Position numbers and translations under genes: made by a program. 64,000 nucleotides of DNA, from the NCBI GenBank assembly GCA_016235675.1, contig JACRJN010000131.1:1779-65778 (forward strand), given 5' to 3'. Shown here piece after piece: positions 1-62,660 of the stretch. Within the stretch, counting starts at the first letter, position 1; each line of letters opens with the position of its first letter. The DNA is from Candidatus Schekmanbacteria bacterium (lineage in GTDB: Bacteria; SZUA-182). The notes beneath the pieces are model-generated. The model did no database searches and had not been told where the DNA came from. It saw only the letters and a list, made by a program, of their open reading frames with translations.

Positions 1-262
1 AAATAATATCCAGGACGCGCCGGATTTGGTGGTGGAGATAATTTCCGAAAGCAGTGTCTACCGGGATTCGGTAAGAAAAAAGAAGCTTTATGCCAAATTC
101 GGGGTCAAAGAATTTTGGCTGGTCGCTCCTGAAGAAAAAATGATTGAGGTTTATAATTTGGACAATCAGAGGTACCGTTTAAGCCAGACTTGTTTTTATA
201 ATGACAGCCTGGAATCTCAGGTTTTGAAAGGCTTCAGGATGGATTCGAAGGATATTTTTTAA
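1..262 (+). CDS. Uma2 family (DUF820) PD-(D/E)XK endonuclease, C-terminal part; 5' end lies outside the window
   Basis: ORF open to the window edge. The block PDLVVEIISES..YRD..KKKLYAKFGVKEFWLVAP is typical of Uma2 and clearly paralogous to 4772..5323. Confidence 0.8.
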   Translation, partial: NNIQDAPDLVVEIISESSVYRDSVRKKKLYAKFGVKEFWLVAPEEKMIEVYNLDNQRYRLSQTCFYNDSLESQVLKGFRMDSKDIF

Positions 263-359
263 ATCAATCACTATTCATTTGTCATGGTTTCGGCTTTTCT
301 CAAGCCAAACATCCTAACATGAGTTTTATACTCTTTTCGAATACTCCGGGGAATAAGTA

Positions 360-590
360 ATGAAAAATTTAACACGAATCACATTTGACCCCAATGTGAT
401 GGGCGGGAAGCCTTGTATCCGCGGATTACGCCTCACTGTTGGAACTATTGTCGGGCTGATTGCTACAGGATATTCCACTTCAGACATTTTGAAAGCATAT
501 CCTTATCTGGAAGAAGACGATATTCGCGAAGCACTTAAATACGCCGCCTGGCGAGTTGAAGAAATCGAATTACCCTTGGTACCCATATGA
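360..590 (+). CDS. DUF433 domain protein (antitoxin-like partner)
   Basis: 76 aa with VMGGKPCIRGLRLTVGTIV and a YP.L..DDI..AL..A signature. ATGA overlap with the next gene. Confidence 0.8.
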   Translation: MKNLTRITFDPNVMGGKPCIRGLRLTVGTIVGLIATGYSTSDILKAYPYLEEDDIREALKYAAWRVEEIELPLVPI

Positions 591-949
591 AACTGCTGGT
601 TGATATGAATCTTTCTCCTATGTGGATTGAATTTTTCGAACAGCAAGGGTGGCAAGCACTTCATTGGTCAACAGTGGGTAACCCTCGTGCAACTGATATT
701 GCAATCATGGATTGGGCGCGGGAAAATGATTATGCGGTATTCACTCACGATCTTGATTTTGGAGCTTTGTTAGCGGCTACCAGCGCTGACAAACCTAGTG
801 TTATTCAGGTACGTACACAAGATATTATGCCCCATAGTTTAGGCCCCAAATTAGTAAAAATATTACGGCAATATGAATCAGTTCTTAATAATGGGGCATT
901 GCTAACTGTGGACGAAAACAAGTCCAGAGTGCGTATTCTACTTTTTTAG
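587..949 (+). CDS. DUF5615 / PIN-like putative toxin
   Basis: 120 aa starting MKLLVDMNLSP, with an acidic FTHDLDFG motif. 4-nt overlap with the DUF433 gene, which is the classic pair arrangement. Confidence 0.7.
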   Translation: MKLLVDMNLSPMWIEFFEQQGWQALHWSTVGNPRATDIAIMDWARENDYAVFTHDLDFGALLAATSADKPSVIQVRTQDIMPHSLGPKLVKILRQYESVLNNGALLTVDENKSRVRILLF

Positions 950-984
950 CAACCAGTAATCACATAATTTCTAGGATTAAACCT

Positions 985-2025
985 ATGATCAACATTTCTT
1001 ACTCCGATTTAAGCTCCGATCCCCGCTATGCCTTTGCAGTCGGGAAAATCAGGGCGCTGGAAACAAACCTGATCACCAATCAGCAGGTCAACCGCCTGCT
1101 GGAGACCAAAGACGCCAACGCTCTTTGGTCGGAATTGGGCAATAACCGGGATTACGAAGCGCATCTGGCCCAATTCTACGATCCCCAGGATTTCGAAGCG
1201 GTTTTAAGCAGCGAATTGAAAAGGGTCTACGCTTTAACCCTGGGGATTTCTGCTGAGCGCACCGCCTTGGAATTACTGGCTTTGCGCCATGATTTCCATA
1301 ACTGCAAGGTTATCTCCAAAGCGTGCTTTTTGGGCGAAGATACGGATAGCAATTTAAGCCCCTTAGGAACGTGTCCCCCCAAAGAATGGGAACAACTCAT
1401 GGTTGCAGAAAAAGAAGCCGGGCTGTGCCGGTTACCTGCCGATTTGATGCAGATTGTCCGTGATGTGCAACAACAGCTTATCGACGAACAAAACTTGCGC
1501 CGGCGGGACATAATCTGGGATCAGGCGCTTTATCAATACCTCTCCCGCCACGCCGAAAAATCGAAAAATCTGTTTGTGCAGACCTGGCTGAAAATTCGCA
1601 TCGACGGCCTCAATTTGCTGACATATGTGCGCTGTATCAGGCAAAAGTCGGATAAGGGATTATTGAAGCTGGCTTTAATTGACAGCGGCACGATAGCTTG
1701 TGAAAAATTGCAAAACGCCTACGAAGGCGGCTTGGAAACGCTGGCCTCCCTGCTCTCCCCTACTCCCTATGCGGGAATGATCCAGGAGGGGCTGGCCTGT
1801 TATAAGCGGGACAACTCCTTTTCCTGTCTGGAAAAACTGTTCGACGATTACGAGATGGAGTTTTTGTCGCAGGCGCGCTATGTCTCTTTGGGGGTGGAGC
1901 CGTTGTTTGCCTATTTATTGGCCAAGGAGACCGAGATCAAGGTCTTGCGCATCCTGCTGGTGGGCAAAATAAACCGCCTGGACAAGACGGAAATCAGTAA
2001 ACGGGTAAGGAGGCTTTATGCCTAA
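985..2025 (+). CDS. ntpC: V-type ATP synthase subunit C (eukaryotic d homolog)
   Basis: 346 aa. YAFAVGKIRALE and LALRHDFHNCKV motifs. Overlaps the start of subunit F, directly upstream of F-A. Confidence 0.8.
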   Translation: MINISYSDLSSDPRYAFAVGKIRALETNLITNQQVNRLLETKDANALWSELGNNRDYEAHLAQFYDPQDFEAVLSSELKRVYALTLGISAERTALELLALRHDFHNCKVISKACFLGEDTDSNLSPLGTCPPKEWEQLMVAEKEAGLCRLPADLMQIVRDVQQQLIDEQNLRRRDIIWDQALYQYLSRHAEKSKNLFVQTWLKIRIDGLNLLTYVRCIRQKSDKGLLKLALIDSGTIACEKLQNAYEGGLETLASLLSPTPYAGMIQEGLACYKRDNSFSCLEKLFDDYEMEFLSQARYVSLGVEPLFAYLLAKETEIKVLRILLVGKINRLDKTEISKRVRRLYA

Positions 2026-2350
2026 GATGGCGATTTTAGGAGAAAGGGACGCGATTTTGGGCTTCAAAGCCGTGGGAGTGAATGTTTTCCCCATCAAAAA
2101 CACCGATGAAGCGGAGGCGGTTTTGCGCAAACTGGCAATGGAAGACTATGCCGCGATCTTTGTCAGCGAGCGTTACGCCCAGGATTTGGAACTGCAAATC
2201 AAGGAGATCGAGCGCTCCGGCGGCATGTTTCCCAGTATCGTAATTATCCCCGGCCCCGGCGTAAATCAAGGGTTGGGAATGAATAAAATCAAAAACATGG
2301 TTGAGAAAGCCCTGGGTATGGCTATTCTTTCCACAGACGAAAAACAATGA
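2018..2350 (+). CDS. ntpF: V-type ATP synthase subunit F
   Basis: 110 aa. MAILGERDAILGFKAVGVNVF N-terminus. Positioned between C and A. Confidence 0.85.
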   Translation: MPKMAILGERDAILGFKAVGVNVFPIKNTDEAEAVLRKLAMEDYAAIFVSERYAQDLELQIKEIERSGGMFPSIVIIPGPGVNQGLGMNKIKNMVEKALGMAILSTDEKQ

Positions 2351-2360
2351 GGTTTGACAT

Positions 2361-4112
2361 ATGCAGGCAGGAAAAATAATCAAAGTGGCTGGCCCTTTGG
2401 TGGTTGCCGACGGCATGGTTGACGCCAAGATGTATGACGTGGTCAAAGTCGGCCTTGAGGAACTGATCGGCGAGATTGTGGAAATCAAAGGCGATAAAGC
2501 CTCGATTCAGGTCTACGAGGAAACGGGAGGCATCGGCCCCGGCGATCCGGTGATCACTACCGGTATGCCGCTTAGCGTCGAGTTAGGCCCCGGATTGCTG
2601 CAAAGCATTTACGACGGTATTCAGCGCCCGCTGGAATTGATCTACGGCAAGGTCGGGGATTTGATCACCCGCGGGGTTAACGTCCCCAGCCTGAATCGGG
2701 AAAAGAAATGGGCGTTTACTCCGACTGGCAAAACGGGTGATAAGGTGCAGGCCGGGGATATTTTGGGCACGCTGCCGGAAACCAGGGTTATTACCCATAA
2801 GGTGCTGGTTCCGCCCGGAATCGAGGGAGAGATCGTTAAGATTGCGGCAGGCGGCGAATACACCATTACCGATACCATCGCCCGCATTAAAACCAAAAAC
2901 GGTGAACAGGATATTTGTATGCTGCAAAAGTGGCCGGTGCGTATCAGCCGTCCCTTAAAGGGTAAGCTTTCGCCCAAAGAGCCGCTTTCCACCGGACAGC
3001 GCATTATCGACACCCTCTTTCCCCTGGCCAAGGGCGGAACGGCTTGTGTTCCCGGCCCCTTCGGTTCAGGCAAGACCGTAGTGCAGCATCAGTTGGCCAA
3101 ATGGGCATCTGCCGAGATTGTGGTTTATATCGGCTGCGGCGAGCGCGGCAACGAGATGACCGACGTTTTGATCGAACTGCCGGAGATCGAAGACCCCAGA
3201 ACCGGTGAATCGCTGATGCAGCGCACCGTTTTGATCGCCAACACCTCAAACATGCCGGTGGCCGCCCGTGAAGCCTCGGTCTATACCGGGATCACCCTGG
3301 CCGAATATTACCGCGATATGGGCTACCATGTGGCGCTGATGGCTGATTCCACCTCCCGCTGGGCGGAAGCCTTGCGCGAGATGTCGGGACGTCTGGAAGA
3401 GATGCCCGGAGAAGAAGGCTATCCGGCTTATCTGGCGACCAAGATCGCCGATTTCTACGAGCGCGCCGGTCGGGTCAACACCCTGGGCAGCAACGGCAGA
3501 GAGGGATCGATCAGCGTTATCGGAGCGGTTTCCCCTCCCGGCGGCGACATGTCCGACCCGGTGGTGCAGGCCACCCTCAAGGTGGTTAAGGTCTTCTGGG
3601 GGCTGGACGCCAATTTAGCCTACCGCCGGCATTTCCCCGCCATCAACTGGCTGCAAAGCTATTCACTGTATATGGACAACCTCAAGGATTACCTGACCGG
3701 AGAAATTGCCCGCGACTGGGTCACCATCCGCCAGAAAGCCATGGCGCTGTTACAGAAAGAGGCGGAACTGGAAGAAATCGTACGACTAATCGGCAAGGAC
3801 TCCCTCTCCCCTACCGATCAGCTAACCCTGGAAATCACCAAGATCATCCGCGAGGATTTTCTGCATCAGAACGCCTTCCACGCCCAGGACTCCTACACCT
3901 CGCTGAACAAGCAATATAACTTGCTGAAGCTGATTCTCACCGCCGAAGAACTGTTCCGCTCCGCAGTCGAAGCCAAAATTCCCTTAAAGCGCATCCTCTC
4001 CATCCCGGCCCTGGAAGAAATCGCCAAAGCCAAGTTTATCACCGAAGACAAACCGGAGGAGATCGAAGCCATCGGGCAGAGATTGAGGGAGCAGGTAGGG
4101 GGGTTGAAGTAA
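2361..4112 (+). CDS. ntpA: V-type ATP synthase catalytic subunit A
   Basis: 583 aa. Walker A GPFGSGKTV, GCGERGNEM and SRWAEALREMSGRLEEMPGEEGYPAYL motifs. Confidence 0.97.
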   Translation: MQAGKIIKVAGPLVVADGMVDAKMYDVVKVGLEELIGEIVEIKGDKASIQVYEETGGIGPGDPVITTGMPLSVELGPGLLQSIYDGIQRPLELIYGKVGDLITRGVNVPSLNREKKWAFTPTGKTGDKVQAGDILGTLPETRVITHKVLVPPGIEGEIVKIAAGGEYTITDTIARIKTKNGEQDICMLQKWPVRISRPLKGKLSPKEPLSTGQRIIDTLFPLAKGGTACVPGPFGSGKTVVQHQLAKWASAEIVVYIGCGERGNEMTDVLIELPEIEDPRTGESLMQRTVLIANTSNMPVAAREASVYTGITLAEYYRDMGYHVALMADSTSRWAEALREMSGRLEEMPGEEGYPAYLATKIADFYERAGRVNTLGSNGREGSISVIGAVSPPGGDMSDPVVQATLKVVKVFWGLDANLAYRRHFPAINWLQSYSLYMDNLKDYLTGEIARDWVTIRQKAMALLQKEAELEEIVRLIGKDSLSPTDQLTLEITKIIREDFLHQNAFHAQDSYTSLNKQYNLLKLILTAEELFRSAVEAKIPLKRILSIPALEEIAKAKFITEDKPEEIEAIGQRLREQVGGLK

Positions 4113-4118
4113 CATAGG

Positions 4119-4165
4119 GTAGGGTGGGCTGCGCCCACCATTTTGATGGGCACAGCCCACCCTAC
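4119..4165. repeat. R-D doublet: GTAGGGTGGGC TGC GCCCACC ... GGGCACAGCCCACCCTAC
   Basis: Two inverted GTAG-anchored hairpins, starting 7 nt after the ntpA stop. Confidence 0.9.
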
Positions 4166-4192
4166 AGGCTACATGAAAAAAAGGGTTGCTTT

Positions 4193-4432
4193 GTGGAGAT
4201 AAATTTTTCTCGTCATGCCAAGAGAAGAGCCAGGTTATACAAAATCCCTGACTCAACAATTCTTAATCTTTTGGAATCGAAAATTTGGAACCAGGGAAAT
4301 CATGAGATTACAAAAATTGTTGCGGGGATTAAATACCCATTGAAAATTGTGTTTAATGTTGAAGACCATATTTTAACTGTAATAACTTGCTATCCTTTAA
4401 AAAAAGGAGCTAAGGGTGAAAGTATATTATGA
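4193..4432 (+). CDS. DUF4258-like small protein (putative toxin)
   Basis: INFSRHAKRRARLY ... ILTVITCYPLKK pattern. In-frame GTG at 4193 chosen because upstream codons translate the R-D repeat. Overlaps the DUF2283 gene. Confidence 0.6.
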   Translation: MEINFSRHAKRRARLYKIPDSTILNLLESKIWNQGNHEITKIVAGIKYPLKIVFNVEDHILTVITCYPLKKGAKGESIL

Positions 4433-4643
4433 CGACGAAGCAGACGCCCTTTATCTAAAATTGGGAGAAGAAACGCCGGAAGGGGTAATAGAGCTAGCCG
4501 AAGGGGTTAATCTGGACACCACTGCTGAAGATAAGATAGTAGGGATAGAAATTTTGAATGCCTCCAAGAAGATTGATTTAAAAACAATATTATCTTATAC
4601 CCTGGAGTTTGAAAAGGATTTAATAACCCAAGAAGCGGCCTGA
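4416..4643 (+). CDS. DUF2283 domain protein (putative antitoxin partner)
   Basis: 75 aa. MKVYYDDEADALYLKLGE and KIVGIEILNASKK are hallmark DUF2283 motifs. Confidence 0.8.
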   Translation: MKVYYDDEADALYLKLGEETPEGVIELAEGVNLDTTAEDKIVGIEILNASKKIDLKTILSYTLEFEKDLITQEAA

Positions 4644-4650
4644 TAGTAAC

Positions 4651-4742
4651 GTAGGGTGGGCTGTGCCCACCAAAGGCTAACCAGGGCAATTTGAACAGCG
4701 ACATATGGGCGAAAAACAAAAGGTTGGCAAAGCCCACCCTAC
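4651..4742. repeat. R-D doublet with about 50-nt spacer
   Basis: GTAGGGTGGGCTGTGCCCACC at the left end and AAGCCCACCCTAC at the right end. Confidence 0.85.
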
Positions 4743-4771
4743 ATAAATAAAACTCAAGGAGGTGAGCACCC

Positions 4772-5323
4772 ATGCAGGGTTTGGCGATAAAGCAAAAAAA
4801 ATATACTTATCAGGACTATTTAAAAACCCCGGACGATATGCGGTATGAACTAATTGAGGGAGATTTAATAATGACACCGGCGCCATATATTCGACACCAA
4901 AGAATTTCCAGTAACTTGTTTTTCAAGATGAGAGATTTCACAAGCACCAATAATTTAGGCGAGGTTTTTTACGCTCCCTGCGATGTCTACTTAGACGATG
5001 AGAATGTTGTTCAGCCGGATATACTCTTCGTTTCCAAGGAGCGTCTGGAAATTATCACGGAAAAGAATATCCAGGGTGCGCCGGATTTGGTAGTGGAAAT
5101 TGTTTCGGAAGGAAATGCTTACCGGGACACCATACAGAAAAAAAGACTATACGCCCGTTTCGGGGTGAAAGAATATTGGATAGTGGCACCGGGGGAAAAG
5201 ATGATCGAACAATATCATTTGAATAAGCAGGGTTACCAATTGATTAGGACTTATTATCATGAGGATCATCTCATATCCCAGGAATTGCAGGATTTCACGA
5301 TTGAATTGAGGGAGGTTTTTTAA
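4772..5323 (+). CDS. Uma2 family (DUF820) endonuclease
   Basis: 183 aa. YELIEGDLIMTPAP, QPDILFV and APDLVVEIVSE..YRD...K..LYARFGVKEYW motifs. Confidence 0.85.
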   Translation: MQGLAIKQKKYTYQDYLKTPDDMRYELIEGDLIMTPAPYIRHQRISSNLFFKMRDFTSTNNLGEVFYAPCDVYLDDENVVQPDILFVSKERLEIITEKNIQGAPDLVVEIVSEGNAYRDTIQKKRLYARFGVKEYWIVAPGEKMIEQYHLNKQGYQLIRTYYHEDHLISQELQDFTIELREVF

Positions 5324-5328
5324 AAAAT

Positions 5329-5386
5329 GTAGTTACCTGATTTATCAGGGAACGGCCTGCTGGTACCCGATAAATCGGGTAACTAC
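5329..5386. repeat. R-H doublet: GTAGTTACCTGATTTATCAGG ... TACCCGATAAATCGGGTAACTAC
   Basis: Inverted GTAG hairpin pair. Second copy at 25117..25172. Confidence 0.9.
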
Positions 5387-5415
5387 AAATGGCAGCATAA
5401 CACAGGAGGAATAAA

Positions 5416-6816
5416 ATGCCGAAAGAATACCGAACTGTGGCCTCGGTTTCCGGACCGTTGATTTTAGTGGACAAGGTAGAAAGCATTAAATACGAAGAAC
5501 TGGTGGAAGTGGAACTGCCCGGCGAACAAATCCGTCTGGGCAAGGTACTGGAGGTCTCAGGAAATACCGCCCTGGTGCAGCTTTTCGGTACATCTACCGG
5601 CATCAATATCTATCAGAGCAAAATTCGCTTTCTGGGCAAGGGGATTGAACTGGGGGTTTCTCCCGATTTATTGGGACGGATTTTCGACGGCCTGGGACGC
5701 CCGATCGACAATGGCCCGCGCATTATCCCGGAAAAACGCCTGAACATCAACGGGAATCCGATCAACCCCTATGCCCGCGATTATCCCTCGGAGTTTATCC
5801 AGACCGGTATTTCCACCATCGACGGCCTAAATACACTGGTGCGCGGACAAAAATTGCCCATCTTCTCAGGTGCCGGTCTCCCGCACTCCCAAATGGCGGC
5901 CCAAATCGCCCGTCAATCCAAGGTTTTGGGCAAGGAAGAAGCCTTTGCCGTGGTCTTTGCCGCCATGGGCATCACCTTTGAGGAATACGAGTTTTTCCGC
6001 CAAGATTTCCAGAAATCCGGTGCGCTGGAACGCTCGGTGCTGTTCGTCAATCTGGCCAATGACCCGGCGGTAGAACGCATCGCCACCCCGCGAATGGCCC
6101 TGACCGCCGCTGAATATCTGGCATTTGAGAAGGATATGCACGTTCTGGTTATCTTAACCGATCTGACCAATTATTGCGAAGCCCTGCGCGAGGTTTCCGC
6201 CGCCCGCAAGGAAATACCCGGTCGCCGCGGTTATCCCGGTTACATGTATACCGACCTGTCCACGATTTATGAACGCGCCGGACGCATCAAGGGCAAAAAG
6301 GGATCGATCACCCAGATTCCCATTCTTACCATGCCGGAAGATGACAAAACCCATCCCATCCCGGATTTGACCGGTTATATTACCGAGGGACAAATTATCC
6401 TGGGACGGGCGATGCACCGCAAAGGCATCTATCCCCCAATCGATGTCTTGCCGTGTCTTTCCCGCTTGCGGGATAAAGGCATCGGCGAGGGCAAGACCAG
6501 GGAAGACCACGCCGGCTGGTCGAATCAATTGTTTGCCGCCTATGCCAGGGGTAAAGAGTCTGAAGAATTGGCGGTTATATTGGGTGAATCGGCTCTATCG
6601 GCAGCCGATAAAACCTTCCTTAAATTCGCCCTGGAATTTGAGCGGCGGTTTGTACAGCAAGGGGCCTATGAAGACCGGGCTATCGAGGAAACTTTGGCTA
6701 TCGGCTGGGAATTAATGGCGGCACTTCCGAAAGCCGAACTCAAACGGGTGAAAGAGGATCATATCGCTAAATATATGCCGGCGGGGAAAGAATTAGGCTT
6801 GAGGCTTGAGGCCTGA
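5416..6816 (+). CDS. ntpB: V-type ATP synthase subunit B
   Basis: 466 aa. [21 protein letters not shown] and [21 protein letters not shown] motifs. The last codons (GLRLEA) are encoded by the GGCTTGAG tandem repeat. Confidence 0.97.
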
Positions 6817-6921
6817 GGCTTGAGTAATGAGATTTGAGGTAAAATCACAGGCAGGATGCCTGTGCTACCGTAGGGCGAATTTGTATTCGCCCTCTTTCCC
6901 TCAAGCCTCAAGTCTCAAGCC
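6796..6921. repeat. Composite palindrome: GGCTTGAG x3-4 arms enclosing an R-E hairpin and a GTAGGGCGAAT hairpin
   Basis: Left arm 6796..6824, right arm 6898..6921. Inner CACAGGCAGGATGCCTGTGCTACC and GTAGGGCGAATTTGTATTCGCCC. Confidence 0.9.
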
Positions 6922-7571
6922 TTTTTATTACAGCGATGAACCAAATTTCGGGCATTAACCCAAATTTGCTCTATCTGGGACTCGGTCAGCCCTGCGCCGA
7001 TGGCTACTTTAATGGCTTGTTCCTGCGAAATGAGGTCATCCGGTTCATGAGAGTCGGTATCAAGTATTAAAGAAGCATCTGATTTTGCGGCCAACTTGGC
7101 CACATGGCCGTTTGTCAGGGAATGTCCCTTACGGCTGGTAATTTCCAGAAAAATATGACGCTTTGCCGCCAAACGGACGTCTTCTTCGCTGATCAAACCC
7201 GGATGCGCCAATATATCGATGTCGGATTTTAAGGCATAATGATTGGTGCCAGGAACAACCGGCTCGGCTATGGTTTCCCCATGGACAACGATAATTTTAG
7301 CGCCCAGGGAGCGGGCACGGTACGCCAGATCGGGGATGAGCTTAGGCGGAACATGCGTTAATTCTATGCCGGGGATAGCGGTTATTTCCCAATGCTGATT
7401 AGCGGTTTGACAGGCTTGAATAATACGCGGGATTACAAATTCCAGGTTGGACGGATCGGCATGATCGGTCAAAGCGATGGCTTTATAGCCTTTAACGACG
7501 GCGTGGCGTATCAATTCCATCGGAAGGAGAACGCCGTCACTGAACAAAGAATGGGTATGAAAATCAAACAT
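6915..7571 (-). CDS. PHP-domain metal-dependent phosphoesterase (histidinol-phosphatase-like)
   Basis: 218 aa. FDFHTHSLFSDG and ALTDHAD motifs. Confidence 0.8.
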   Translation of the reverse strand: MFDFHTHSLFSDGVLLPMELIRHAVVKGYKAIALTDHADPSNLEFVIPRIIQACQTANQHWEITAIPGIELTHVPPKLIPDLAYRARSLGAKIIVVHGETIAEPVVPGTNHYALKSDIDILAHPGLISEEDVRLAAKRHIFLEITSRKGHSLTNGHVAKLAAKSDASLILDTDSHEPDDLISQEQAIKVAIGAGLTESQIEQIWVNARNLVHRCNKKA

Positions 7572-7573
7572 GT

Positions 7574-7933
7574 CTATTGAGCTAACTTAACGGTAACATT
7601 TTCAAAACGAGTCATCAATTCTTTCGCTTCCTGCATAAAACTATTCAATAAAGCGTCGCTGCAACATTGCTTACTTCTCAATTCATCACATAATTTACTG
7701 TTATCTAAATACAAGGTGATATTATTCGCGCCCATCCCCTTAGCCCTTCTTAAGGCAACTAAAAGCGCACAGGAATCCTGAATATCTTTGTTAGCCAAGG
7801 TAGCATTTTCCCGGATAATGCTCAAAAGGTTATCTTCATCATCTTTAACCATTACTTCAACGTAGCCGCGTGAATAGGGTTTTATCTGCTTTTGGCCATT
7901 TACAAATAAAATTAAGTGATTAAATCCCGCCAT
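7574..7933 (-). CDS. Small RNase H-like (RVT_3-type) domain protein, possibly catalytically degenerate
   Basis: Strand-helix pattern LILFVNGQ ... CALLVALRRAKGMG ... ITLYLDNSKL resembles the RNase HI fold, but Asn replaces the first Asp. Start uncertain (GTG at 7942 is possible). Confidence 0.35.
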   Translation of the reverse strand: MAGFNHLILFVNGQKQIKPYSRGYVEVMVKDDEDNLLSIIRENATLANKDIQDSCALLVALRRAKGMGANNITLYLDNSKLCDELRSKQCCSDALLNSFMQEAKELMTRFENVTVKLAQ

Positions 7934-8045
7934 AGCCCTCACCGCCTTTTTAAACCCAATTAAATTATAGCATCTTACTATTTAAAATGCAATTGAAGTA
8001 GTTTGTAAAATGTATCGCAGATAACACAAAGAAAAATAATATTTT

Positions 8046-20287: not shown

Positions 20288-20294
20288 GCTAAAA

Positions 20295-20356
20295 CCGAGA
20301 TACGAGGTACGAGATACGTAGAAAAGCATTTTCGTATCTCGTATCTCGTGCCTCGG
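20295..20356. repeat. GAGATACG tandem-unit palindrome (copy 2)
   Basis: CCGAGATACGAGGTACGAGATACG...CGTATCTCGTATCTCGTGCCTCGG. Confidence 0.9.
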
Positions 20357-20484
20357 TAATTGAGGCACTTTTCTTGCAGTAACATTGCTAACTATAAATT
20401 AACGGTACAGGCTTGTAACGGGGGGCTGGTTTTTTTCGAGCCTCGCAAGCCTGGAAACAGCAAATTTCAAACAGGAGGTTCGGA

Positions 20485-21826: not shown

Positions 21827-22093
21827 ATGACTAAATCAGCTTTATTCTCTTATCTTGAAGGATATAAGCTGGCTGATAAAATCATTAAAAAGGAAAAAAA
21901 ACAGCGGCTTTCTCAAATGACGTTTGAAGAATCCTTGCTTGAGTTTAATAACCTTTGCCTAACCTGGGAATCAGTTTCCAACAAAGAAGGAATGGATAAT
22001 TTGGAAAAGCGAAAAATTACCTTCCTTATCGAACAAAGAGCTCGCTTAGATAAAGCCGGCAGCCGGAAAGTGAAAAATGAATCAATACGCTAA
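21827..22093 (+). CDS. Hypothetical small protein, partner of the downstream nucleotidyltransferase-fold gene
   Basis: 88 aa. 17-nt overlap with the next ORF. No recognisable motif. Confidence 0.45.
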   Translation: MTKSALFSYLEGYKLADKIIKKEKKQRLSQMTFEESLLEFNNLCLTWESVSNKEGMDNLEKRKITFLIEQRARLDKAGSRKVKNESIR

Positions 22094-22652
22094 AGCTATC
22101 GATGAATTGCATGAATTTTTTGACCGGGAGGGAATATCTTATGCCATTATTGGAGGCATTGCTCTACAATATTGGGGAGAGCCTCGTTTTACCAGAGATA
22201 TAGACGTCACCGTTCTGGTTGATTTAGGTAAAGATGAAATAATCCTGCAAAAAATTCTTTCTGTATTCACGCCCCGCATCTCTGATGCCTTGAAATTTGC
22301 CCTGCAAAATCGTGTTTGTTTGGTTAGAAGCCGGGATGGGATCGAAATAGACATTTCTCTGGGTATTCCCGGATACGAAGAGAAAATGATGGGGCGTACG
22401 GTAGAATGTAATCTGGGCGGCAGCTATAATGTTAAGATTTGCTCGGCGGAAGACCTGATCATTCATAAAGCCGTCGCCGGAAGACCGCAGGATTTAGCTG
22501 ATATTGAGAGCATAATAATGCGCCAGGGTGAAAAATTGGATGAAGCATATATCCGTTTTTGGTTGGATGAGTTTTCTCTCTTGCTTGAAACCAAAGAAGT
22601 ATTGGAGCGGTTCGAAAATCCCTGGCGGCGGTTGCTTGGGGAAGATGAATAA
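22077..22652 (+). CDS. Nucleotidyltransferase-fold protein (AbiEii/MNT-like)
   Basis: IIGGIALQYWGEPRFTRDIDVTV matches the G(G/S)..(n)..D.D NTase signature. Confidence 0.5.
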   Translation: MNQYAKAIDELHEFFDREGISYAIIGGIALQYWGEPRFTRDIDVTVLVDLGKDEIILQKILSVFTPRISDALKFALQNRVCLVRSRDGIEIDISLGIPGYEEKMMGRTVECNLGGSYNVKICSAEDLIIHKAVAGRPQDLADIESIIMRQGEKLDEAYIRFWLDEFSLLLETKEVLERFENPWRRLLGEDE

Positions 22653-25086: not shown

Positions 25087-25116
25087 AATGCCCCCTTTTA
25101 AAGACTGTGCCGCAAT

Positions 25117-25172
25117 GTAGTTACCTGATTTATCAGGTACGACCCGTGGTACCCGATAAATCGGGTAACTAC
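25117..25172. repeat. R-H doublet (copy 2)
   Basis: GTAGTTACCTGATTTATCAGGTAC...GGTACCCGATAAATCGGGTAACTAC. Confidence 0.9.
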
Positions 25173-25181
25173 AATTACCCA

Positions 25182-29068: not shown

Positions 29069-29248
29069 GTAGGGTGGACACACAGAACGGTAGCACAGGC
29101 ATCTTGCCTGTGATGTGGGCAACGCCCACACAAAAACGGTGCAATGACTGGAAGTTGTTGGGTAAATCGAAAGCTTCCATTCTATGCCGCAACACACAGG
29201 CTGGAAGCCTGTGCTACCCTACCCAATGGTGGGCACAGCCCACCCTAC
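29069..29248. repeat. Composite palindrome: outer R-D halves, inner R-E hairpins and a GTGGGCAACGCCCAC hairpin
   Basis: GTAGGGTGG...GGTAGCACAGGCATCTTGCCTGTG ... CACAGGCTGGAAGCCTGTGCTACC...GGTGGGCACAGCCCACCCTAC. Confidence 0.88.
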
Positions 29249-42544: not shown

Positions 42545-42602
42545 GTTGTCAGTTGTCAGTTGTCGGTTTTAATTCTTTAACTGACAACCGACAACTGACA
42601 AC
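42545..42602. repeat. GTTGTCA heptamer-triplet palindrome
   Basis: GTTGTCAGTTGTCAGTTGTCGGTT...AACTGACAACCGACAACTGACAAC. Confidence 0.9.
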
Positions 42603-45866: not shown

Positions 45867-46103
45867 ATGATTATTAAAAAAAATATTCAAAAGGAAACAT
45901 CGTTGGAATTGCCTTGGCATTTATTAGAAAAAGCCCATCTTAAGGGGAAAATAAATATTATTGTGGAAGAAAATGAAATCCTGATTAAAAAACAAACTAA
46001 AAAATCTAAGGTTGTCGATGAAATGATCGGTCTGGGAAAGGGTATTTTTAGTGAAAACTCGCTAACTCTTCAGAAAAAAATTCGGGAGGATTGGAAACTG
46101 TGA
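45867..46103 (+). CDS. Putative VapB-type antitoxin
   Basis: 78 aa. GAGGA RBS. 13-nt overlap with the PIN gene. An AbrB-like strand pattern is suggested. Confidence 0.55.
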   Translation: MIIKKNIQKETSLELPWHLLEKAHLKGKINIIVEENEILIKKQTKKSKVVDEMIGLGKGIFSENSLTLQKKIREDWKL

Positions 46104-46531
46104 AAAGAATTGGTCTCGATACCAATATTTTTATGAGCGTTTTTTTGGAAGAAAAGGGGAAATTAGAAGCTTGCCTGGCGATTTTACAAAATATTCATGA
46201 CGGTATTCTGGAAGGGATTATCAGTGTAATTACATTAGTAGAAATAGCCGTACTTTTTTACCAAAAAAATGAATATCTAAAAGCTAAGAAAGCCTTATCC
46301 CTTATCAACTCTCTTTCAAATATTGCCATTATTGACATAACTCCACATTTGGCTTTAAAAATAGCTGCTATAAAAACTTCAGATAAATTATCTGTTGCGG
46401 ATGCAATTATTCTTGCCACAGCGGTACACGCATCTGCGGAAGCTTTTTTAACGTATGACCATGACTTTGCCAAAGTAAAAACCATCAGGTGCATTAAACC
46501 GGAAGATTATCTTCAAGAGATGAATATTTGA
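46091..46531 (+). CDS. vapC: PIN-domain ribonuclease toxin (VapC)
   Basis: RIGLDTNIFM (first acidic residue) and a downstream E. The DAIILATA and TYDHDF motifs complete the PIN acidic quartet. Confidence 0.8.
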   Translation: METVKRIGLDTNIFMSVFLEEKGKLEACLAILQNIHDGILEGIISVITLVEIAVLFYQKNEYLKAKKALSLINSLSNIAIIDITPHLALKIAAIKTSDKLSVADAIILATAVHASAEAFLTYDHDFAKVKTIRCIKPEDYLQEMNI

Positions 46532-52933: not shown

Positions 52934-52994
52934 CGTTGACGGTTGACGATTGTCGGTTATTATTTTTTTAACTGACAACTGACAACCGTCAACA
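52934..52994. repeat. GTTGACG/GTTGTCA heptamer palindrome with T-rich loop (possible bidirectional terminator)
   Basis: CGTTGACGGTTGACGATTGTCGGTT ATTATTTTTTTA ACTGACAACTGACAACCGTCAACAG. Confidence 0.85.
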
Positions 52995-62292: not shown

Positions 62293-62660
62293 GGGGGCGA
62301 CTGGTTTCGACGGGGCTATTGAACCTCCAACTGCATGTCGAGCATTCTACTGACTCGTAAATCCGGTGGAAAAACAATAAACGCAAACTACTATGGCGAA
62401 AGCCAATTAGCTTTAGCCGCCTAATTAGTGCGGCTTCGTCCACCCTGCTTCGCTGATGGAGCGGGATGTGGGCGGCATATACATCAGATAGCGGATCCGC
62501 TTCGCCTAAGGGCGGACGAGCGAAACTACACTTTGGCTGGCCTTTCTTTGATCCTGCCGCCGGGAGCGGAAAGAGGCGAGAAACAATCCAGCGGCTAAAC
62601 ATGTAGAAGTTGCCGGCAAGGTACTCTCGGACGCGGGTTCGATTCCCGCCGCCTCCACCA
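62293..62660 (+). ncRNA. ssrA: tmRNA (SsrA)
   Basis: 5' GGGGGCGACTGGTTTCGACGGGG. 3' GGACGCGGGTTCGATTCCCGCCGCCTCCACCA. Acceptor stem pairs GGGGGCG with CGCCTCC and includes G3:U. Candidate tag ORF GCA AAC TAC TAT GGC GAA AGC CAA TTA GCT TTA GCC GCC TAA at 62383..62424 (ANYYGESQLALAA). Confidence 0.95.

Follow-up and report, generated by a model that had tools for sequence, protein, structure and literature searches.

We analyzed a 64,000-nt stretch of the Candidatus Schekmanbacteria bacterium contig JACRJN010000131.1 (assembly GCA_016235675.1, positions 1,779-65,778; the whole stretch is here referred to as the window), which contains part of a V/A-type ATPase operon. Small accessory genes lie at two junctions of this operon, between subunit genes E and C and between subunit genes A and B. 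The explanation that we favor, with a probability of about 0.7, is that two kinds of selfish DNA have lodged independently at the E-C and A-B junctions of an intact and selected operon. Small horizontally acquired genes would settle at these junctions, co-oriented with the operon and packed behind the upstream gene; in the window this cargo comprises a DUF4258-like/DUF2283 pair, a DUF433/DUF5615 pair and two solitary Uma2 genes, and it would be transcribed by read-through from the ATPase promoter. The second kind, dimers of GTAG-tagged repetitive extragenic palindromes (REPs), would be non-autonomous and mobilised by REP-associated tyrosine transposases. They would spread through co-directional spacers and also enter the three new spacers made by the cargo, probably cargo first and REPs later. 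Both junctions would then be recurrent hot spots of the clade, where cargo is gained, replaced and degraded.

Gene inserts at the E-C and A-B junctions

The end of A at 4112 and the start of B at 5416 leave a spacer of 1,303 bp in the window, in agreement with the 1.3 kb given in the initial annotation, and the gap between E and C is 1,383 bp. As background we used outgroup loci, mostly from Bacillota together with other lineages, whose B is 60-77% identical and whose genes follow the canonical order G-I-K-E-C-F-A-B-D. A genome-contig scan with A reached relatives of at most 66% identity and a metagenome-contig scan with B at most 77%, and both served as background only. The A-B gap in 154 outgroup loci has a median of 17 bp and never exceeds 66 bp, which bears out the earlier statement that A and B are normally adjacent; the E-C gap in 85 outgroup loci has a median of 3 bp and a maximum of 167 bp. 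Close relatives, with B 81-90% identical, were gathered by protein search and contig context look-ups (Table 1). For the B of the window itself an exact look-up gave no record, but the protein search returned the identical sequence as P0001.

Table 1. V/A-ATPase loci of close relatives and the genes found at their junctions.
Locus	Identity of B	A-B junction	E-C junction	After B
L083/L084	88%	no insert (64 bp)	no insert	convergent genes
L088	83%	no insert (143 bp)	no insert	aspartyl-tRNA synthetase (AspRS)
L086	82%	DUF6036 nucleotidyltransferase + 59-aa gene	no insert	AspRS
L170	82%	truncated copy of L086 insert	no insert (117 bp)	AspRS
L087	84%	MNT-type nucleotidyltransferase	DUF4258 + 75-aa gene	263-aa open reading frame
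L169	81%	HEPN + MNT	MNT + HEPN	AspRS
L085	90%	upstream of B: 151-aa gene, REP transposase, DUF5677	not visible	FGE-sulfatase
L171	84%	upstream of B: HEPN-like 230-aa gene	not visible	D

Small genes are present upstream of B in six of the eight related loci and are unrelated to the cargo of the window, and genes between E and C occur in three operons (the window, L087 and L169). L086 and L170 share one insert (junction DNA of 70-79% nucleotide identity), while short remnants of an L086-type insert stand beside the MNT/HEPN cargo of L169 and L087. Because the cargo differs among relatives and remnants persist, E-C and A-B appear to be sites of repeated gain, replacement and decay. A conserved, ancient insertion is contradicted by L083/L084 and L088, which have no insert, and by the other relatives, which carry different cargo. 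No other junction of the operon holds a gene insert in any clade locus. The 21 cargo genes, which make up about 12 modules, all share the orientation of the operon; in the window they are all on the plus strand, and their co-orientation there had been noted in the initial annotation. In the REP-free relatives the cargo starts 5-38 nt past the stop codon of the upstream ATPase gene.

Some further variation was seen around these loci. The junction between AspRS and a NosD-like beta-helix gene in the sub-clade of L086, L088, L169 and L170 is also variable, with RelE-like genes in L086, DUF4325 and PIN genes in L169 and other small genes too. In L085, a stretch of at least 2.66 kb before B contains no A gene. 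Among the Clostridia-type loci, L008, L009, L015, L016, L018 and others have an A-subunit match that exceeds the usual 1,743 bp by about 300-440 bp; their A-B gaps are normal, and the extra length may be a stray aligned piece and not an insertion.

Integrity of the operon

The initial annotation had described the operon as reduced to C-F-A-[insert]-B, which did not hold. Logan contig L001 reaches 1.1 kb further upstream than the window and shows, in this adjoining segment, the C-terminus of K and the whole of E. There E is followed by a heptamer-repeat palindrome, a full Uma2 gene (183 aa, L001 843-1394), DUF433, DUF5615 and C, so the combined order of window and L001 is ...K-E-[Uma2, DUF433/DUF5615]-C-F-A-[cargo]-B. 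Subunits K, E, C, F, A and B are thus present, G and I lie beyond the contig end and D is absent from the window; the nine genes were not seen in a single cluster. The search for D, E, I and K elsewhere accordingly succeeded for K and E but not for D, which was not found in the window, nor for I.

Every ATPase reading frame is intact, and A keeps the Walker A motif GPFGSGKT at residue 232. The ratio of nonsynonymous to synonymous substitution rates (dN/dS), calculated against L083, amounts to 0.086 in A and 0.036 in B at a saturated dS (>1.6). These ratios indicate that A and B are under strong purifying selection. The order K-E-Uma2-DUF433-DUF5615-C-F-A also occurs in an independent Logan assembly (L001), and the A-DUF2283-Uma2-B junction is reproduced by an independent Logan assembly of SRR12113407 (L082). 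Since the junction was recovered in an independent assembly, the observed arrangement stands. Gene calls and foldings also agree with the earlier description of the spacer as doublet, pair, doublet, Uma2 and doublet, and Pfam matches place Uma2 and DUF433/DUF5615 upstream of C (Table 2).

Table 2. Features of the operon region, in window coordinates (GC3, G+C content at third codon positions; z, folding energy relative to shuffles).
Feature	Position	Strand	Evidence and remarks
Uma2, C-terminal part	26-262	+	PF05685, E = 4.7e-14; first cargo gene of the E-C junction
DUF433 (COG2442), predicted antitoxin	360-590	+	PF04255, E = 2e-24; GC3 0.39
DUF5615 PIN-like, predicted toxin	587-949	+	PF18480, E = 2.4e-24; PIN_10, E = 2.6e-4; GC3 0.34
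V/A-ATPase subunit C (d/AC39)	985-2025	+	PF01992, E = 1.2e-52
V/A-ATPase subunit F	2018-2350	+	PF01990, E = 6.8e-19
V/A-ATPase catalytic subunit A	2361-4112	+	four Pfam domains
A-B spacer, 1,303 bp	4113-5415		three genes and three hairpin doublets
REP dimer 1	4119-4165		two GTAG palindromes (GTAGGGTGGGCnnnGCCCACC), inverted, 3 nt apart; -39.7 kcal/mol, z = -5.5
DUF4258-like protein, 79 aa, putative toxin	4193-4432	+	RelE/ParE-type fold (predicted); GC3 0.29
DUF2283 protein, 75 aa, putative antitoxin partner	4416-4643	+	PF10049, E = 2e-16
REP dimer 2	4651-4743		family of dimer 1, 50-nt spacer; -41.9 kcal/mol, z = -4.2
Solitary Uma2 (PD-(D/E)xK nuclease-like)	4772-5323	+	PF05685, E = 5.6e-36, profile positions 2-169 of 172
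REP dimer 3	5328-5387		other GTAG family (GTAGTTACCyGATTTATCrGG); -34.8 kcal/mol, z = -7.9
AGGAGG Shine-Dalgarno site of B	5404-5409	+	
V/A-ATPase subunit B	5416-6816	+	Pfam; NCBI P0001 'V-type ATP synthase subunit B [Candidatus Schekmanbacteria bacterium]', identical sequence
Composite hairpin	6802-6930		inverted heptamer arrays around two GTAG REPs, then TTTTTATT; -47.7 kcal/mol, z = -6.3
PHP-domain gene, convergent with B	6915-7571	-	

Cargo genes of the window

The DUF4258-like and DUF2283 genes of the A-B spacer overlap by 17 nt. We set the start of the DUF4258-like gene at the GTG at 4193 by alignment to 18 homologues of 74-83 aa, so that the protein begins with MEINFSRHAKRRARLY; the mechanical open reading frame (ORF) opens at 4124, within the first hairpin. 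The label DUF4258 held at the family level, where 19 of 19 close family members match PF14076 (best E = 8.7e-8), but only weakly for the window protein alone, which scores 15.3 bits against a cut-off of 25 (E = 0.025, profile positions 1-70 of 71). Its AlphaFold model has a pLDDT (predicted local distance difference test) of 90.1, and the top Foldseek matches in PDB are all of RelE/ParE type (YoeB 2a6r, YafQ, RelE 4fxe, ParE and HigB2), with probabilities of 0.9-1.0, TM of 0.5-0.6 and weak E-values of 0.016-0.1. By this model, the protein is assigned a RelE/ParE (BECR) fold. DUF4258 has been placed in the RelE/ParE superfamily, with its target entered as unknown (PMC11980606). A pair of the same family (75+75 aa, 4-nt overlap) is found upstream of queA in the unrelated genome GCA_040960315.1 and in other assemblies (L172-L174), and is therefore a conserved bicistronic module; its toxin and antitoxin activities are putative. 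The E-C pair of L087 (DUF4258 + 75-aa gene) was considered as a counterpart and rejected, as BLASTP detected no relation between the two, which belong to different subfamilies.

At the E-C junction, the DUF433 gene directly precedes the DUF5615 PIN-like gene with a 4-nt overlap. PIN-COG2442 pairs are a predicted toxin-antitoxin system (Makarova 2009, PMC2701414), and DUF433/DUF5615 is assigned to this predicted module on its domains and gene order. The Uma2 gene of the A-B spacer matches the PADLOC candidate defence family PDC-S03 (E = 1.5e-47), and Uma2 has been called a 'likely solo toxin' (PMC2701414). The two Uma2 copies of the E-C and A-B junctions are 61% identical in amino acids and 72% in nucleotides; at this identity they are not a strong recombination substrate, and a recent duplication of Uma2 was rejected. 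An NCBIfam search gave no names for the cargo proteins.

Cargo genes have a GC3 of 0.29-0.47, against 0.5-0.7 in the ATPase and other housekeeping genes, which fits horizontally acquired mobile genes. More low-GC3 modules of toxin-antitoxin-like appearance are found in the window: an 88-aa gene with an AbiEii/DUF6036 nucleotidyltransferase (21827-22652) and a 78-aa gene with a PIN-domain protein (45867-46531). Each has the orientation of the host gene that comes next, from which it is separated by 33-45 nt.

The hairpin doublets are GTAG-tagged REP dimers

The hairpin doublets of the A-B spacer are dimers of GTAG-tagged REPs, judged by their sequence and predicted folding, and such repeats are distributed genome-wide. 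Their units (4119, 4165(-), 4651, 4743(-), 5329 and 5386(-)) each consist of GTAG followed by a GC-rich stem of 7-10 bp, and none of 200 shuffles folds as stably as any of the three doublets. Dimers 1, 2 and 3 begin 7, 8 and 5 nt past the stop codons of A, DUF2283 and Uma2, respectively. A strict GTAG-hairpin scan found 38 hairpins in the 64 kb, compared with 0.4 in 30 dinucleotide shuffles; they form at least five families and are mostly inverted dimers. Further copies of family 1 are located at 11952-12024 and 29228-29248, and a second copy of family 3 at 25116-25173. In the window, 17 of the 35 intergenic spacers of at least 40 nt contain REPs, and none of the divergent spacers does.

REP density is 0.59 per kb in the window, 0.52 per kb in L085 and 0.009 per kb in the outgroup, while the other clade loci are essentially REP-free, with one isolated hit (in L169). 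A REP-associated tyrosine transposase is also found in L085 (NF047646, E = 1.1e-50, 171 bits, cut-off 80); its gene is flanked by its own GTAGGTTGGG REPs and located at L085 1141-1635, about 1 kb upstream of B and beside the DUF5677 gene. An Rfam scan of the window returned a tmRNA only, and the hairpins match no Rfam family.

These data do not support the idea that each module is delimited by a hairpin doublet. Given that REP-free relatives carry cargo and that REPs fill about half of the spacers, the apparent delimitation is best explained as two independent processes that coincide. With a spacer occupancy of 49%, a REP in three of three insert spacers is expected by chance with p of about 0.1.

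Two other observations concern the repeats of the window. One GTAG REP dimer (16891-16946) lies inside the leuS ORF (16335-18923, minus strand), between the regions for the catalytic and anticodon-binding domains at about residues 659-677, and the ORF is still open. Intragenic REPs in tRNA synthetases, like this case, are reported in PMC3733652. Distinct from the GTAG REPs is a second repeat class of inverted tandem-heptamer arrays that form long hairpins, with the units (AGGCTTG)n, (CGAGATA)n, (GTTGTCA)n and (CGCAGAG)n. These arrays are found at 6802-6922, 9219-9294, 20294-20357, 42545-42602 and 52935-52993 of the window and at 745-830 of L001. We take them to be reminiscent of the cyanobacterial STRR (short tandemly repeated repetitive) repeats.

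Expression of the cargo

REP dimers 1 and 2 are 27-28 nt from the next start codon, each gene is preceded by a good Shine-Dalgarno site, and B has the same ACAGGAG context as in the insert-free L083. In positions 1-8000, promoter-like hits (11, compared with 9.8 in shuffles) and terminator-like hits (14, compared with 10.2) are not above chance. The short gaps from dimer to start, the good Shine-Dalgarno sites, the chance level of promoter-like hits and the location of cargo 5-38 nt behind ATPase stops together favor read-through from the ATPase promoter as the best-supported model for transcription of the cargo. Dimers 2 and 3 are without a U-tract, and a weak one (ATTTTGAT) comes after the first unit of dimer 1. 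The composite hairpin and U-tract after B probably constitute the operon terminator, and it is more likely that the internal REPs modulate the stability of mRNA segments or weakly attenuate transcription than that they terminate it.

Most of the clade lacks subunit D after B

Searches for D in the window, by tblastn with D of relatives and by a profile built from 63 D proteins, found none (best E = 2.8). With this profile, D was detected immediately 3' of B in 66 of 80 outgroup loci from metagenomes, and no D was detected in L083, L085, L086, L087, L088, L169 and L170. D after B is kept in L171, so seven of the eight clade loci are without it. A protein search with the nearest outgroup D (Sumerlaeota) gave no match named Schekmanbacteria and led to L171. 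The initial annotation had noted that no D follows B because the next gene is convergent; the first part is right, but the cause is not, as seven of eight loci lack D irrespective of the gene after B. This lack is therefore shared by most of the clade and does not depend on the insert, and D would be encoded elsewhere. In L086, L088, L169 and L170, AspRS is directly 3' of B in the place of D.

Evaluation of alternative explanations

The same hairpins could be read in two other ways. They might be functional ends of mobile cassettes (attC-like, or like miniature inverted-repeat transposable elements), in which case modules and hairpins would have been inserted as units, by a site-specific or single-strand mechanism. 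Integron cassettes are co-oriented and promoterless and frequently contain toxin-antitoxin genes, and this reading gains from the doublet in each of the three insert spacers, from the 24-nt inverted repeat (96% complementary, 4142-4165 / 4651-4674) that brackets the pair and from the REP transposase upstream of B in L085. We consider it very improbable and already largely refuted, as the same hairpin families occur at cargo-free loci across the window and in 17 of the 35 spacers, L086, L169 and L170 bear cargo at the same junctions without hairpins, and the same toxin-antitoxin family stands in L172 without such bracketing hairpins. In addition, attC cores (RYYYAAC ... GTTRRRY) are not readable at the doublet ends, and the spacing of units within dimers varies (2, 3, 25 and 50 nt). 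Rather unlikely, though less so, is a role of the REP hairpins in internal termination or RNA processing, by which A and B would come from separate transcripts or be expressed at unequal levels and internal promoters would drive B and the cargo. In favor of this are the high stability of the hairpins, the terminator-like first REP unit with the ATTTTGAT that follows it, and weak promoter-like hits at 4998-5025 and 5233-5260. Toxin-antitoxin modules usually have autoregulated promoters, and malE-malF is an example of upstream mRNA stabilised by REPs. Such stabilisation of upstream mRNA segments is described for REPs in E. coli operons, where they are substrates of RNase R and PNPase (PMC12320835). 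What speaks against this reading is the lack of a U-tract in dimers 2 and 3, the shuffle-level number of promoter- and terminator-like hits, the 27-28 nt from the dimers to the next start codon, the strong selection on B with its ancestral ribosome-binding context, and a canonical U-tract terminator only after B.

An artefact of assembly or binning, or an operon that is a decaying second copy, appears extremely improbable as the explanation. It is true that the source is a metagenome-assembled genome, that misassembly can arise from repeats such as REPs, and that D is missing; nevertheless, L082 and L001 from independent Logan assembly give the same order, similar inserts are seen in several independent assemblies of relatives, and intact frames, a dN/dS of 0.04-0.09 and the intact Walker A motif argue against decay. 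There is also little to commend the view that E-C and A-B are true landing pads, at which toxin or defence genes are targeted specifically and kept since ATPase-linked expression is useful, with REPs tuning the transcript that reaches B; if this were true, energy status or subunit stoichiometry might be coupled to growth arrest or phage defence. Several points weigh against independent lodging of cargo and REPs with read-through expression. The clade sample is small (nine operons including the window, from metagenome contigs), and the contigs of L085 and L171 end before A, so that a position between A and B is assumed for both. As dS against the nearest insert-free relative is saturated, the gains are undatable and secondary loss in L083 or L088 is possible. 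No REP transposase gene was detected in the 64-kb window by tblastn, and the toxin-antitoxin role of the DUF4258-like/DUF2283 pair is putative only, with the toxin gene first. The consensus used in the promoter scan may not be that of the phylum and internal promoters are possible, and the first REP unit, with its 7-bp GC stem, passes a lenient terminator rule and could attenuate before B.

Other features of the window

A tmRNA gene is located at 62293-62660 (Rfam, 194.9 bits), with the tag peptide ANYYGESQLALAA. Adjoining the PHP gene convergent with B is a 122-aa ORF (7574-7942, minus strand) of low GC (0.38) with an RVT_3 domain (RNase H-like, 'reverse transcriptase-like').

Implications and comparison with known systems

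The components described here are of known kinds: GTAG REPs, type II toxin-antitoxin-like modules, Uma2 and a V/A-ATPase operon. In the literature searched, we found no description of an ATPase operon with two specific junctions that are repeatedly colonised by co-oriented genes, and undergo turnover, across the members of a clade, and the recurrent hot spot is a modest novelty, new but descriptive. It suggests that the operon of a multi-subunit enzyme can tolerate repeated gain of selfish genes between catalytic-subunit genes while these subunits are still under strong selection. That only E-C and A-B take cargo hints that tight coupling is needed for G-I, C-F and F-A and not for E-C and A-B. 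A very REP-rich genome of a candidate phylum is added to the range of GTAG REPs and their transposases beyond Proteobacteria, with the warning that in such a genome hairpins beside inserted genes are not to be taken as cassette boundaries. For the annotation of energy metabolism in this lineage, it matters that D does not follow B in most clade members.

The closest counterparts of the hairpins are the GTAG-tagged REPs and REP dimers of Di Nocera 2013 (PMC3733652), whose properties match those in the window. Both are GC-rich palindromes of 20-30 nt with an unpaired GTAG at one end, mostly in inverted dimers, and a genome has several families of them in high copy number. They are placed in the spacers of co-directional or convergent genes, no more than 20 nt past the upstream stop codon, with some intragenic copies (one in leuS here), and a transposase flanked by REPs is present in L085. 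REP dimers (BIME/REPIN) and REP-associated tyrosine transposases are treated by Bertels & Rainey (PMC3337134). The differences are that Schekmanbacteria are not among the phyla named in the abstract of PMC3733652, that the window is without a transposase gene, and that the density is very high (about 0.6 per kb).

Type II toxin-antitoxin cassettes (PMC2701414; PMC11980606), in which DUF433+PIN and HEPN+MNT are published predicted pairs, resemble the cargo in being small overlapping bicistronic pairs of low GC with a patchy distribution in close relatives, and in the RelE/ParE-like fold predicted for the DUF4258-like protein. The cargo differs in that it has no recognisable promoter of its own and lies inside an energy-metabolism operon rather than alone. 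Moreover, the DUF4258/DUF2283 pairing is putative, with the toxin first and the window protein under the Pfam threshold.

Integron cassettes, as generally known, are likewise promoterless, co-oriented small genes parted by imperfect palindromes, but attC cores are unreadable at the doublets, the palindromes here are genome-wide, and the cargo of relatives is without palindromes; neither an integrase nor a cassette array turned up, although the presence of an integrase was not searched for. Horizontal-transfer hot spots between core genes are also known, as are toxin-antitoxin loci in housekeeping operons, for example relA-mazEF. With such hot spots the ATPase junctions share the presence of different accessory genes at one inter-gene position among relatives, remnants of old cargo and highly conserved flanking genes. 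They differ in that they lie inside one operon, between subunit genes of one complex that include the two subunits (A and B) alternating 3:3 in the catalytic head, and in that all of the cargo is co-oriented.

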